Below are positions 1 through 55,412 of a stretch of DNA of 64,000 nucleotides, piece by piece. A program made the position numbers and the translations under genes. The stretch is from Eledone cirrhosa (lineage: Eukaryota), in assembly GCA_964016885.1 (NCBI GenBank), contig OZ024763.1, forward strand, positions 22,196,001-22,260,000, given 5' to 3'. The notes under the pieces were generated by a model. It searched no databases. It was not told where the DNA came from and saw only the letters and a list, made by a program, of their open reading frames with translations. How positions within the stretch are numbered: the first letter of the stretch is position 1; each line of letters begins with the position of its first letter.

Positions 1-266
1 GTATGTATATATATATATATGTGTGTGTATATATATATGTATATATATATATATGTGTGTGTATATATATATATGTATATATATATATATATATATATAT
101 ATATATGTGTGTGTATATATATATATATATATATATATATGTGTATATATATATATATATATATATATATATATATATACATGTGTATATATATATATAT
201 ATATATATATATATATATATATATATATATGTGTATATATATATATATATATAGGTATATATATAT
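1..266. repeat. (TA)n microsatellite with TG interruptions
   Basis: Direct reading of the sequence. Confidence 0.97.
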
Positions 267-395
267 AACAGAAGTCCGACAAGCTTTTGATTTCAGAGTT
301 GGGCTCGATTGATATAGATCGAACCTTGAGCTGATCAATTGCGAAACGCGCATCACACCTCAATAAATGTAATGTATCATCTTGTCCATTTTATT
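266..395 (+). mobile_element. pLTR-like fragment (family A) with a degenerate hammerhead motif
   Basis: Homologous to the reverse complement of 45661-45805. Reads CCGACAA(276)-GC...GC-GAAA(343)-CGCGCA-TC, then AATAAA at 362. Flanked by TA. Confidence 0.6.
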
Positions 396-427
396 ATATA
401 TATATATATATATATACGCTTATATAT

Positions 428-1555
428 ATCATCATCATCATCATCATCAACGTTTAACGTCCGTGTTCCACGCTTGCATGGGTTTGGACGGGGGTAGTCC
501 CACTTGAGGCAAGAGTGATTGTCTTGCTCGCATAGGACTGTCTGGCAGGTTTTCTACAGTTGGATGCCCTTCCTAACACCAACCACATTTACAGTGTGGG
601 TCTGGGAGGTTTTTACCGTGTTGCCTACACGGCCACATTACAGCGTGGACTGTGTGTTTTTTTGTCGTGACACCTACACGATCTCATTTGTTTCGGCCTC
701 GATGGCGCGGCACCAACATAACTTTACATAGAACGGGGTGGTGTGGATCGGGTGGGGGTGGGGGTGGTGGGACGGGGTGTATTTTGTTAGAGATGCCTAC
801 TGGCTGGAGTAGGTTTTACTATATATTTAGGTAAGGCGGGTCTTCTCTGTTACTGAGTACCGCCAAAGGTCTCGGTCCAGTGACATTGTCTTGGAGAGGT
901 GTAAGTGTGTGATGTCGGAGTTTATCAGCTCGTCCCAGGTTTTTCTAGGTCTGCCTATTCCGTGACTACCGTCTATCTTTATTGCCCTGCACTTTGTTAT
1001 ACAGCTATCGACTTTCATGCGCATCACGTGTCCATACCAACGTAGCCTTCTCTCGAGTAAACAACATCTGATCCCTCTTATCTCTAATTTTTTCCTTAGT
1101 TCGTTTATGCTTTGCCGTTCACGTATATTACTGTTACACATCCAGCGGAGCATGCAAGCTTCGTTCCTCTCTAGTCTGCGTATATCCTCTGCACACAATG
1201 CCCAGGTCTCACTGCCATGCAGCATTGCTGTTCGTATGCAGGCATCGTACAACCTGCCTTTCATTTTTAGTGAGAACCCTTTAGCAGCTAATAGTGGTAT
1301 AAGCTCTCTGAACTTTTTCCAACCAGTTCTGACTCTAGCTACAGTACTTTCAGAGCACCCTCCCCCACTGCTGATTTTATCGCCCAGGTAACGGAAGCTG
1401 TCCACTATTTCTATAGAACCCTCTGCGCAATTGAAAGAGCTAGTAGTTTGTGGGCACTTGCTGCTACTTATTGCACCAGAGCACCGGCCACATGTAAAAT
1501 CTATGTTCTTAGTTAGCTTACCTGTGATCCCACTACATCTTTTATGCACCCATAC
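428..1555 (-). mobile_element. 5'-truncated RTE-clade LINE (RT C-terminus, 3' UTR, (ATG)n tail)
   Basis: 827-1555 translates to WVHKRCSG...DSFRYLG...LHGSETW...[12 protein letters not shown]...GRPRKTW. (ATC)n at 428-449 on the plus strand is the tail. Confidence 0.93.
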
Positions 1556-2946
1556 TATATATATATATATATATATACGCATATATATATATATATATAT
1601 ATATATATATATATATACGCATATATATATATATATATATATATATATATATATAAGCGTATATATATATATGCGTATATATATATATGCGTATATATAT
1701 ATATATATATACAGACATATATATATATATATATATACATATATATATATATATATACATATATATATATATATATACATACATATATATATATATATAT
1801 ACATACATATATATATATATATACAGACATATATATATATATATATACAGACATATATATATATATATATACAGACATATATATATATATATATACATAT
1901 ATATATATATATATATATATATACATATATATATATATATATACATACATATATATATATATATATATACAGACATATATATATATATATATATACATAT
2001 ATATATATATATATACATACATATATATATATATATACATACATACATACATATATATATATACATACATATATATATATATACATACATATATATATAT
2101 ATATACATACATATATATATATATATATATATATATATATACATATATATATATATACATATATATATATATATATATACATACATATATATATATACAT
2201 ATATATATATATATATATACATACATATATATACATACATATATATATATACATACATATATATACATACATATATATATATATACATACATATATATAC
2301 ATACATATATATATATATATACATACATATATATACATACATATATATATATATATATATACATACATATATATATATATACATATATATACATACATAT
2401 ATATATATATATATACATACATATATATATATATACATACATATATATATATACATACATATATATATATATACATACATATATATATATATACATATAT
2501 ATATATATATATATATATACATATAAATATACATACATATATATATATATACATACATATATATATATATATATACATATACATACATATATATATACAT
2601 ACATATATATATATATACATACATATATATATATACATACATATATATATATATACATACATACATATATATATATATATATATACATATATATACATAT
2701 ATAGATACATATATATATATATATATATATACATACATATATATATATATACATACATATATATATATATATATATACATACATATATATATATATATAT
2801 ACATACATATATATATATATATATACATATATATATATATATATATATATATATATATATATATATATATATATACATATATATATATATACATACATAT
2901 ATATATATATATATATATACATACATATATATATATATATACATAC
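1556..2946. repeat. (TA)n/(TACA)n microsatellite
   Basis: Direct reading of the sequence. Confidence 0.97.
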
Positions 2947-2947
2947 A

Positions 2948-3230
2948 TCTTTTTGAATTTGCCACCGACGCAGAGACAGTGATTTTCTCAATGGCTAGGA
3001 ATTCAGTCCACGCTTTGCTATTTTCTATCCACTAAATTATTTTTGAATAAGTTTCCAGAGTCCACGCTTTGCCTGGATACTTAGATGAGAATAGTCTTCC
3101 CAGACGACGAAATGATTCTCTATGTTTTCTTCGGAAAATATATTTATTCCATTCCAGAAACTAATTAGTTGGAAGTGATATTTTAGTAAGTAAGTTAATT
3201 TTATAATTTTCTTATTTTACGTCTCTCATA
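2948..3230 (+). mobile_element. Family B HHR-bearing element, 3' part
   Basis: Homologous to 41860-42163. CTTCC-CAGACGA(3101)-stem II-GAAA(3157)-CTAATTAG-TT-GGAAG. Confidence 0.7.
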
Positions 3231-52624: not shown

Positions 52625-53170
52625 TGATGAAAGGAAAAAAGAGAAGTGATGAGAATAAGAGAGAAGAATGAGATGAAGAGAGAGAGAATAATAGAGAAGA
52701 GAGATGGTGATTAGAGAGAAGGAAGGATGGTGAAGATGTGAGAAAGAAGAGAGATGAAGATGTGAGAGAGAAGAGAGATGAAAATGTGAGAAAGAAAAGA
52801 GACAATAAGAGAGTAGAGAGATGAAGATGTGAGAGAGAAGAGAGATGAAAATGCGAGAAAGAAAAGAGACAATAAGAGAGAAGAGAGATGAAGATGTGGG
52901 AGAGAAGAGAGATGAAGAGAGATGAAGATGTGGGAGAGAAGAGAGATGAAAATGTGAGAAAGAAAAGAGACAATAAGAGAGTAGAGAGATGAAGATGCGA
53001 GAGAGAAGAGAGATGAAAATGTGAGAAAGAAAAGAGACAATAAGAGAGTAGAGAGAAGAAGAGAAGAGAGAAGAATGAAATGAAGAGAGAGAATAAGAGA
53101 TGAGATGTAGAGAGAGAGAAAGAATAAAAGGGAGAGGAGAGATGGTGAGGTTGTGAGAAAGAAGAGAGAC
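52625..53170. repeat. Purine-rich GA repeat with a higher-order unit of about 70 bp
   Basis: Direct reading of the sequence. Confidence 0.85.
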
Positions 53171-53199
53171 AAGAACCTATGTTAACTAACAAGGTTGAA

Positions 53200-54365
53200 A
53201 CAACACCTACTACTACTACTATAGCTGTTATTACCACTATAGCTACTACAACTACTACTACAGCTACTACTACTACTACAGCTACTACTACTACTACAGC
53301 TACTACTACTACTACTACTACTACTACTAGCACTACTACTACTACTACTACACTACTACTACTACTACAGTTACTACAACTACTACTACAGCTACTACTA
53401 CTACAGCTACCACTACCACTATTAATACGACAACTGCCACCACTACACCATTACCACTACTAATACTACCACTGTTACTACCATTTCTAATACCACTACC
53501 ACCACTGATACTACCACCAATACTACTACTATAACTGCTATGACCAGTACTACTACCACCAATATTACTATCACTACTACGACTACCCCATTACCACTAC
53601 TACCACCACCACTACCACCACCACTACTATTACCACTGTTACTACCACCACTACCACCACTACCACCACCACTACTATTACCACTGTTACTACCACCACT
53701 ACCACCACTACTACTACCACTGCTACAACCACCACCACCACCAACACTATTACCACCACCACCACTACTACTACCACTGCTACTACCACCAACACTACTA
53801 CTACCACTGCTACTACCACCACCACCACTACCACCACTACTACTACCACTGCTACAACCACCACCACCACCACTACTACCACCACCACCACCACTACCAC
53901 TGCTACTACCACCACCACCACTACTACTACCACCACCACCACCACGACCACTACTACTACCACCACCACCACCACGACCACTACTACCACCACCACCACC
54001 ACGACCACTACTACTACCACCACCACCACCACTACTACTACCACCACCACCACCACGACCACTACTACTACTACCACCACCACCACCACCACTACTACCA
54101 CCACCACCACCACCACGACCACTACCACCACCACCACCACCACTACTACTACCACCACCACCACCACCACCACCACCACCACTACCACCACCACCACCAC
54201 CACCACCACTACTACCACCACCACCACCACGACCACTACTACTACCACCACCACCACCACCACTACTACTACCACCACCACCACCACGACCACTACTACT
54301 ACCACCACCACCACGACTACTACCACCACCACCACCACCACCACTTCTACTACCATTATTACTGC
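53200..54365. repeat. (ACT)n/(ACC)n trinucleotide array
   Basis: Direct reading of the sequence. Confidence 0.95.
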
Positions 54366-54886
54366 TGCTGCTACATTAAAGCTTACATTTTATTGATTGT
54401 TTCAGCTGAGCACAAATTCAAATTTTTTTTTATTGAGGGCGGGGTTAGGGGGGAGATGGAGGGTAAGATATCACCATCACCACTACCACTGATACCATCA
54501 CCACCACTGCTACCATACCATCACCATCACCACTACCACCACCACCACTCCTACAACCACCACCATCCCTACAACCACCACAACTACTACTACCACTCCA
54601 ACAACATCAGCATCTTCATCACCACCACCTTGTTTATGTCCCATAAATGTTACATGCTACGCCCCCCCCCCCCACTCCTTCACACCTACACCTGCCCACA
54701 AACCAGTTGGTATTTGAACTTGAAATCTAGAGAGAGAGAGCAGGAGACAGATGAACTGAGAGTAGCATTAGAGGGGGTTACACTTAAATAAATACTGCTA
54801 CACACACACACACACACACACACACACACACACACACACACACACACACACACACACACACATACATACATATACATATATATATA

Positions 54887-55158
54887 TCATCATCATCATC
54901 ATTTTACGTCCACTTTTCCCTGCTTGCAAGGGTGGGACGGGAACTGATTCTGGCTTGATTTCTACAGCTGGATGCCCTTCCTAACACCAACCTCATTTAC
55001 AGTGAGTGCTGGGTGCTTTTTTGCCGTGGCACCTCCACGACCACTTTGCAGTGGAATGATAGGGACCCCAGTCCCTATCATCTCATTTCTACAGCTGAGT
55101 AAACTGGAGCAATGTGAAATAAAGTGTCTTGCTCAAGGAAACAACACATCACCCAGTC
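54887..55158 (-). mobile_element. SINE (family of 14984), head truncated
   Basis: Near-identical body and tail. Confidence 0.85.
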
Positions 55159-55210
55159 TGTATATATTTTATCAAATGATTCTATGGACTTACTTTCTTA
55201 TATATATATA

Positions 55211-55412
55211 AGAAAGAAAGTGTGGTAAGAAACCAGGTGAACCATAACACACCAGGGTACTCGATACTTAGGGTACTAGAGTGGGTAATAGGAAAAGAGT
55301 CACGACCCCGATGGCTGAGCTCCGGCAGTTTTGACAGCTAGATCCGAACTGTTCAGACCTAGCTGTCGAAACGGCCGGAGCTCAGCCGTCGGGGTGCTGA
55401 CTCTTTTCCTAT
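55211..55412. mobile_element. Family C fold-back of HHR 3' halves with tail
   Basis: Hairpin 55288-55412; GAAA-CGGCCGGAGCTCAGCCG-TC-GGGG. Confidence 0.7.

Follow-up and report, generated by a model that had tools for sequence, protein, structure and literature searches.

Most traced hammerhead-bearing islands in the TA tracts of Eledone cirrhosa are probably truncated 3' ends of Hydra-clade Penelope-like elements

We find that the short hammerhead-bearing islands lying between TA tracts in a 64-kb stretch of the E. cirrhosa genome (hereafter the window) are best read as the remains of coding retrotransposons. Six of the eight families that were traced would be 5'-truncated, often inverted 3' ends of coding Hydra-clade Penelope-like elements (PLEs) inserted in (TA)n, and one a non-coding 530-nt unit likely copied by a Hydra enzyme, a reading to which we give a probability of roughly 0.85. 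It is carried by the unbroken sequence that links ribozyme and coding frame, by (TA)n flanks, by two fixed 3' ends per family, and by paired arms and variable 5' breaks. The tracing covered families A to H and a minority of the 47 clusters formed. Copy sets hold the best 40 scoring copies per search and are biased toward query-like copies.

The hammerhead motifs seen between TA tracts hold up, and this genome contains them in great numbers. A strict scan of the 64-kb window gave 6 matches as against 0.05 in shuffled sequence (40 block shuffles), and a pairing-free pattern applied genome-wide gave 178,577 matches as against 15,132 for the reversed control. Sampling of 790 kb outside the window recovered 38 strict hammerheads, where the control predicts 0-2, as against 8 endonuclease (EN) loci and 5 reverse transcriptase (RT) loci in the same sample. 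The motif total would be about 1.6 x 10^5 for one restricted pattern, exceeding the 126,247 of the axolotl. The core (CUGANGA/GAAA/NUH) and stems I-III follow type I order. Thus the motifs exceed chance and have the type I layout, as the initial annotation of this DNA had proposed, and its figure of at least seven families in 64 kb is surpassed. The Rfam comparison that it suggested yielded one match only, HH9 at 41295-41365, at 29.1 bits and below the cut-off of 52 (scan of 41100-45900); no hammerhead is present among the 150 of 557 Rfam matches listed for the whole window, where TA-repeat miRNA matches dominate. Predicted folds of single copies often lack the hammerhead shape (z -0.2 to -2.7).

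All 13 full sites named previously are hammerheads or decayed copies of them, eight with an intact core in the window and five decayed here and intact in relatives. They had been named without strands, and five of them are minus-strand sites (14046, 24047, 24557, 42454 and 45713). The families and their hammerheads, with the earlier position in brackets where it differs by strand, are as follows.

264..403, plus strand: family A copy, short end; hammerhead at 276 decayed; 79% to 45663-45806
2945..3231, plus strand: family B, older truncated copy; hammerhead at 3101 decayed; 82% to 41862-42246
13891..14428, minus strand: family C, long minus-strand arm with a short arm inverted against it; intact cores at 14094 minus (named as 14046) and 14332 plus
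14570..14925, minus strand: family O, abundant, minimal-stem-III hammerhead at 14828
15397..15620, minus strand: sub-family D2 copy whose ribozyme carries deletions and did not score as a hammerhead
23056..23302, plus strand: family J, 3' half and inverted arm, with a stem II akin to that of family A
24029..24291, minus strand: family D, full hammerhead at 24136 (named as 24047) with U3:A8 core and short end; decayed here, G12 changed
24348..24476, minus strand: family K, 3' half; another at 38338-38381
24541..24650, minus strand: family I, hammerhead with core at 24621 (named as 24557); stem I decayed
24745..25026, minus strand: family D stub whose long arm breaks off in stem II; an RTE fragment (24881-24968) separates it from the short inverted arm
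31591..34848, plus strand: family G, near full-length Hydra-clade PLE, about 75 nt missing at the 5' end; RT frame to 33306, GIY-YIG frame 33267-34286, one frame break; hammerhead 34592-34622 with intact U3:A8 core at 34592, short end 34683, long end 34848
40860..41391, plus strand: family E, a truncated 3' UTR that runs to the short end; intact canonical hammerhead at 41311
41602..42160, plus strand: family B, partial tandem of a non-coding unit of about 530 nt, unit start near 41749; intact core at 42013, short end 42160
42247..43600: family F island, with a 5'-truncated 3' UTR on the minus strand (42247-43438; intact core with U4C at 42496, named as 42454) and an inverted short arm on the plus strand (43436-43600; intact core with U4C at 43515)
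43860..43995, minus strand: family M, 3' part of a hammerhead-like motif
45228..45519, plus strand: family H, internal deletion, RT-thumb piece fused to the 3' UTR; intact core at 45418, stem II opening after 3 pairs
45566..45858, minus strand: family A, long arm and inverted remnant; hammerhead at 45794 (named as 45713) with U4C core, decayed here, G12 changed
55199..55412, minus strand: family D stub, long and short inverted arms, without the 5' half of the core

Five of the six 3' halves proposed earlier also stand. Those at 23167, 24395-24412, 24990 and 55368 belong to families carrying full hammerheads elsewhere, and 43955-43980 lies in an abundant family with core and GAAA, from which only the 3' part of a hammerhead-like motif was assigned. 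The sixth, 25626-25650, was not confirmed, its matches being found only in window-overlapping loci (2 of 348 loci). The full motif at 14828 on the minus strand had been overlooked. A likeness of 26162-26710 to the hammerhead was rejected, as stem II and GAAA are not present in order.

Families C, D, E, F, G and H, six of the eight traced, have copies elsewhere that extend into a Hydra-clade GIY-YIG frame, and RT is reached as well in four of these (G, F, C and E). Given this continuity with coding frames, we read the islands as 5'-truncated, often inverted 3' UTRs of autonomous PLEs. For family G, 95 matches were found among 92 candidates scored, the best at 97-98% amino acid identity. In family F, 23 of 24 other copies extend past 43438 and all four extended loci hold RT and EN; in family C, 8 of 24 other copies extend 5', and both extended loci hold RT and EN, 97% colinear over 3.7 kb. 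Extended loci of family E hold EN in four of seven and RT in three of seven. D and H are tied to the Hydra clade by EN or thumb only: thumb, EN and hammerhead occur in order in 7 of 24 other H loci (79-85% colinear over 1.6 kb), the RT core not being seen contiguous, and a common EN lies upstream of 2 of 24 other D copies, RT being found in neither of the two extended loci searched for it.

Assignment of G, F, C and E to the Hydra clade is made from motifs and domain order. A single RT frame with C-terminal GIY-YIG is present as a 927-aa frame in a family G locus (L012), and F, C and E have RT followed by EN on one strand; frames are broken in the window copy of G and in fetched copies of C. 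RT motifs are RWK and DKT in G and C, and RWR and DKT in F, with DKT standing in place of DKG. By eye, all three carry the CxCX5C linker, with CxxC and CxH flanking the conserved E and N, and no CCHH, as expected of Hydra; E has the CxCX5C linker and CxxC with CPH, and D has CxxC and CxH. Two further features likewise agree with that clade: a hammerhead near the 3' end, which here lies 300-1700 nt beyond the stop codon, and insertion in (TA)n. The endonucleases are 37-51% identical among families and to the element at 31.6-34.8 kb (five compared). A Pfam search gave no match for the RT or GIY-YIG domain, and a protein search gave 178 relatives, the best at 42% over the full query and nearly all without names. 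Classification of the 31.6 kb element as Naiad was rejected, its endonuclease being C-terminal, not N-terminal, and canonical hammerheads being present.

The link to PLEs drawn in the initial annotation is therefore borne out, and its two further proposals give way: the islands are not mostly a separate non-coding system, six of the eight traced families being ends of coding PLEs, nor does the 31.6-34.8 kb PLE, cited there as an example of the mobilising elements, appear to move them. Since C, D, E, F and H continue into Hydra-clade frames of their own, each family was likely mobilised by an autonomous parent particular to it. This bears on annotation too, where short islands in TA tracts that look 'unique' or hairpin-shaped would be retrotransposon ends.

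Judged by its sequence, B is the only traced family that behaves as a non-autonomous unit. It consists of non-coding head-to-tail units of low GC content (34%), each with a type I hammerhead, and its longest frame is 93 aa. The same tail-to-start junction precedes 34 of 34 unit starts (30 by rule and 4 by eye, overlapping loci included). Two same-strand ribozymes lie 528-530 nt apart in three loci, and two is the most seen in the loci examined. Its start motif is common to seven autonomous 5' UTRs. On the strength of the non-coding 530-nt unit, the partial tandems and this Hydra 5' start motif we call B retrozyme-like, and it is likely copied by a borrowed Hydra enzyme. Non-LTR retrozymes (PMC7229834; bioRxiv 10.64898/2026.07.22.740005) resemble B in being non-coding, type I and head-to-tail, and also in the 34% GC and PLE-related ends. 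The unit of 530 nt exceeds the 150-450 nt given by Cervera and de la Pena 2020 (PMC7229834) and falls within the 51-972 of Li et al. 2026 (bioRxiv 10.64898/2026.07.22.740005); B differs in that its partial tandems and inversions are PLE-like and that no array of more than two ribozymes occurs in the loci examined. It offers a natural minimal substrate of 530 nt for the role of hammerheads in PLEs.

Are most of the islands, then, non-autonomous retrozymes with fixed units of their own, carried by a few autonomous elements? This holds for B, and among the traced families the earlier description of non-coding retrozyme units is borne out for B only. For C, D, E, F, G and H, the absence of a coding parent and the fixed short unit that define a non-LTR retrozyme were not found; each of these six families, out of eight traced, leads into a coding frame of its own, and 5' breaks differ from copy to copy. 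Vertebrate retrozymes derived from PLE ends are known (bioRxiv 10.64898/2026.07.22.740005), many of the 47 clusters have no EN upstream, and family A is without a parent: a link to a coding frame was found in none of 66 copies, an exact 5'-edge pattern search gave one copy and no parent, and a second search with six widened loci found none. A fixed 5' end for A, considered on account of TA-flanked starts, was dropped because one copy reaches 210 nt or more beyond the usual break on the 5' side, which also speaks against a fixed unit. We consider it quite improbable that most islands are of this kind, and retain their reading as ends of coding PLEs.

The boundaries of the islands bear on how they arose. 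A TA run lies within 30 nt after the long end in 159 of 189 cases and after the short end in 122 of 163, where the background is 13%, in line with the (TA)n targeting first proposed. Each family has two fixed 3' ends, long and short arms stand head-to-head, and 5' breaks differ between copies. The opposite partner of a long arm is short rather than long in 4:2 (G), 3:0 (F), 17:0 (C), 51:3 (D) and 14:0 (A) cases, overlapping loci included; family K breaks this rule, with four long-long pairs and one long-short. Tails measure 73-165 nt across families. The near-perfect inverted repeats and high copy number of C, D and J recall DNA transposons with terminal inverted repeats, whose ribozyme likeness would be incidental. 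Yet one of their arms exceeds the other by a fixed tail, the centre of the island differs between copies, contradicting a fixed transposon, and C and D join PLE coding frames, which makes such an origin extremely improbable.

Insertion of truncated PLEs could proceed as follows. In vitro work on an anole element (PMC11167929) suggests by analogy that the GIY-YIG domain would nick both strands of a TA tract and that RT would start from two fixed internal RNA sites. Most copies would stop early and two cDNAs would join head to head, giving one arm with a tail and one without; new insertions would target TA runs left by older ones. As 5' ends show no accumulation at the cleavage site, with 5 of 403 arms ending within 3 nt of it, the template would be mostly uncleaved RNA, or RNA cleaved and re-ligated. 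From transcripts that are tandem or read-through, the ribozyme would likely release element RNA or turn it into circles, working as a dimer through its palindromic stem III.

Intact cores were counted in 12/12 copies of G, 23/23 of F, 14/16 of C, 14/16 of E, 20/22 of B, 16/24 of D, 30/62 of A, 10/21 of H and 19/22 of O. In 40 matches for which pairing was not required, the closing pair of stem I forms in 34, as against 4 when slid by one (T-A in 17, C-G in 14). The dimer pair at the centre of stem III likewise forms in 34, with none when slid, and no gain over the slid control is seen for stem I pairs 3-4 or for the first pair of stem II. Stem III is a perfect palindrome in 16 of 28 matches and in 0 of 4 in shuffles, palindromy not being scored.

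An alternative is that the hammerheads do not cut in vivo, selection without catalysis keeping the fold for positioning or stalling RT. The absence of a pile-up fits this, as does the short end, which lies about 43-61 nt past the cut in seven of eight families while tails vary from 73 to 165 nt; moreover, PLE hammerheads cut weakly in vitro (PMC4209133), and the ribozyme is dispensable for insertion in vitro (PMC11167929). The spacing of 20 nt in D, however, departs from this regularity, and the families preserve the letters of the catalytic core, the U3:A8 swap of G and D among them. In fetched loci, variant cores (C3-A8, U3-G8 and control changes) gave 0-3 matches against 163 for the standard core, though U3:A8 itself gave only 2. 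Overall we regard the absence of cutting as rather unlikely.

A broader and tentative proposal, which we hold less likely than not, is that this genome holds the largest ribozyme census in the literature surveyed and a still-active Hydra radiation, in which a 5' hairpin and a hammerhead fold placed some 50 nt ahead of the short start set two priming sites, let the 530-nt mini-element parasitise the enzyme and stall RT in stem II. If so, PLE hammerheads would have a positional role in reverse transcription. A shared 5' hairpin (CTCC-N4-11-GTNGAGC) does lie just past the long RT start, and in one family most insertions stop inside stem II. The start-motif pattern has 2 matches in 790 kb as against 0-2 in shuffles, so its support is positional, from adjoining Hydra start codons, and not from frequency. 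With its many young families, intact cores, different stems and measurable ends, the genome offers material for such questions.

The kind of element is already known: a hammerhead-bearing Hydra PLE and solo and opposite-strand PLE hammerheads are in print, and the role of the ribozyme is described as unclear, possibly parasitic, and dispensable in vitro (PMC8557442, PMC4209133, PMC11167929). Whether these families are catalogued, left undecided in the initial annotation, has a partial answer in one Octopus bimaculoides Hydra element with a hammerhead, Hydra-1_Obim (Craig et al. 2021, PMC8557442), whose printed hammerhead (Hydra-1_oBim) is, by eye, unlike every hammerhead of the window; the families may already sit in Dfam, Repbase, the Zenodo library of PMC13282606, the preprint or the Craig supplements. 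A 2026 repeat annotation of Octopus vulgaris gives 31 recent Penelope-like families, and the part of its text surveyed does not mention ribozymes. We found no report in the literature of the 1.6 x 10^5 scale or of a hammerhead count for any cephalopod, nor of tails this long, the shared 5' hairpin or a family stopping in stem II.

In the accounts of the Hydra clade (PMC8557442), the C-terminal GIY-YIG, RWK, DKT, CxCX5C and canonical hammerhead near the 3' end agree with ours, as do (TA)n insertion, partial tandems, inverted 5'-truncated copies and the tail on one arm. The Eledone units, however, measure about 3.3-4.2 kb rather than 'generally <3 kb', their tails 73-165 nt rather than 30-40, and at least six diverged families occur in one window as against one octopus family. 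Anole Poseidon in vitro (Frangieh et al. 2024, PMC11167929) shares the two RT starts defining the tail and AT-rich cleavage on both strands; its tail is 30-40 nt, 2-4 times shorter than in Eledone, and its ribozyme overlaps the start of the coding frame, whereas here it lies well past the stop. The PLE hammerheads of Cervera and de la Pena 2014 (PMC4209133) share several traits with ours: truncated PLEs leave solo motifs, pairs on opposite strands stand 100-700 bp apart, and the U3:A8 variant, a palindromic helix III and many families per genome occur. They differ in their counts of 2,000-9,000 per genome, as against about 1.6 x 10^5 for one restricted pattern here. Also unlike those, helix III is here mostly 6-7 nt and stem II reaches about 100 nt. 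Several families of the window are 96-99% identical among copies.

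We find that the hammerhead feature of this DNA is real and abundant. A strict scan demanding the core, stems I-III and the cut-site motif NUH returns 6 motifs in the window, while 40 dinucleotide shuffles made block by block average 0.05, the comparison with shuffled sequence by which the initial annotation had proposed to check motif density. Outside the window, the same scan of 79 evenly spaced stretches of 10 kb each (790 kb) gives 38 motifs versus 0-2 in five shuffles. The 13 full sites proposed for the window are all explained by a relaxed site-by-site scan and by their relatives, as 8 intact cores and 5 decayed copies from intact families; five of the six proposed 3' halves belong to families present elsewhere, whereas that at 25626-25650 could be assigned to no such family. 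Across the 3.0-Gb genome, in which TA tracts and RTE LINEs are plentiful, a pairing-free pattern, one that omits U4C cores, U3:A8 cores and long stems, has 178,577 matches versus 15,132 when read backwards, an excess of ~163,000. The highest published count found is that of the axolotl, 126,247 (available text of PMC7229834); no cephalopod count was found in the literature searched, as distinct from repeat libraries. In the 790-kb sample this pattern matches 40 times versus 5. The closing pair of stem I is present in 34 of these 40 matches (4 when slid), with both T-A and C-G in use, and the centre of stem III, in dimer register, pairs in 34 (0 when slid); the outer pairs of stem I and the first pair of stem II show no gain over the slid control. 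The collected loci group into 47 clusters.

The initial annotation spotted the feature rightly but was mostly wrong about its origin. It read most of the short islands as a non-coding retroelement system; five hammerhead-bearing families (F, C, E, H and D) reach coding frames, whereas B, which is non-coding and without a long frame, fits that description. Tracing took in F, C, E, H, D, B and A, and left out I, J, K, M and O (RT, reverse transcriptase; EN, GIY-YIG endonuclease).

Coding element and traced islands
31591-34848, + strand: G, near full-length Hydra-clade Penelope-like element (PLE)
42247-43600: F; 23/24 other copies extend past the window's break
13891-14428: C; 8/24 other copies extend further
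41311: E; EN in 4/7 and RT in 3/7 extended loci
45418: H; thumb, EN and ribozyme motif, in order, in 7/24 loci
24136: D; shared EN upstream in 2/24 copies
42013 and 3101: B; the element's own tail precedes every listed unit start
276 and 45794: A

RT and EN are found together in 4/4 extended loci of F and 2/2 of C, while RT was sought but not found in the extended loci of D. Given that the five endonucleases compared are only 37-51% identical, the islands' coding elements are separate families. In two C copies elsewhere in the genome (L193 and L194) a frame break separates RT from EN and affects one and the same region, which may reflect a shared mutation, a sequencing error or a programmed shift. 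G itself encodes RT and then a GIY-YIG domain, and shows the defining motifs of the Hydra clade (PMC8557442, available text). Its best genome copies share 97-98% protein identity and include direct partial tandems and inverted arms; its hammerhead has a U3:A8 core, a type reported in 2014 (accessible part of PMC4209133). RT relatives include one named from Argonauta, which together with the genome's TA- and RTE-rich composition suggests an octopus-like host, and many are full-length (~700 aa) on 2.3-3.0 kb contigs of public assemblies, about one element long. GIY-YIG frames from other Penelope-like types occur at loci L030, L207, L212, L214, L111, L299 and L223.

The kind of element is already known. 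As far as the available texts go, Hydra-1_Obim has a hammerhead and a (TA)n preference (Craig 2021 supplement, PMC8557442), truncated PLEs leave solo and opposite-strand hammerheads (2014, PMC4209133), and retrozymes were proposed as PLE derivatives in 2020 (PMC7229834), as has been argued for vertebrates in a 2026 preprint (bioRxiv 10.64898/2026.07.22.740005). The scale is unusual, and a few testable cis features are added.

One such feature lies at the 5' end, where CTCC-N4-11-GT(T/A)GAGC stands directly past the junction in seven autonomous 5' UTRs and an eighth has its second half only; B carries the variant GTCGAGC, and the window's B copy has partly lost the motif. At the other end, the 3' ends of every family fall at two fixed positions, the tail being the stretch between long and short end: 165 nt in G, 164 in F, 102 in C, 76 in D, 98 in A, 74 in K, 73 in M, ~120 in B and ~100 in E. 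TA runs adjoin both ends far more than background. The end pattern agrees with a tail ascribed in vitro to two RT starts, at 2-4x the published length (both from the available text of PMC11167929); the literature searched, as distinct from repeat libraries, yielded no report of the start hairpin or of long tails. Head-to-head pairs of copy pieces (arms) combine a long and a short arm in five families, and K departs from this rule. The short end falls ~43-61 nt beyond the predicted cut site in 7/8 families and 20 nt beyond it in D, and 5/403 arm starts lie within 3 nt of that site. Sampled D-type arms (n=33) start inside stem II (27) or further 3' (6), and 0/33 reach the 5' half of the core, a clustering that partly arises because the D2 sub-family has diverged from the query. 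D hairpin centres vary between copies, so each hairpin arose separately at a hotspot.

Continuity with coding frames, target and end pattern are directly observed. We propose that, after two nicks, reverse transcription would be target-primed and begin at two internal sites, that it would stop early, and that the cDNAs would be joined head to head; B would be moved in trans. B ribozyme motifs repeat at 528-530 nt spacing (3 loci), and EN lies upstream of 1 of 41 B ribozyme motifs overall, with an inverted arm in between. Folded as a circle, a B unit (L161, ~15 nt flank) reaches -109.6 kcal/mol versus -93.4 +/- 5.6 in 30 shuffles, a gap that weakly suggests the predicted circular fold. No coding link was found among 66 copies of A, one of which extends 210 nt further 5'. 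A local duplication of the H and A islands (window 45228-45672), 91-100% identical, lies ~12 kb before the window (L287). O (14570-14925) is a very abundant hammerhead family with a 4-nt stem III, one part of which has 22 matches in 790 kb. No hammerhead was found in the repeat family at 26162-26710, which has a 28-nt direct repeat on its flanks and is ~85% identical to a copy in L193.

The window also holds LINE copies, which we take to be RTE-type.

LINE copies
47602-50724, + strand: open 1040-aa endonuclease-RT frame
29398-31566, + strand
27261-29336, - strand: 96% identical to 47602-50724
837-1553, - strand

A TA-rich block (3228-7691) recurs at 8232-12830 (88%) with a 630-nt island, beside a 200-N gap near 7690-7890; tandem duplication may explain this, or else an effect of the assembly. 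At 61100-63075, ~165-nt units, ~70% alike, form an array.
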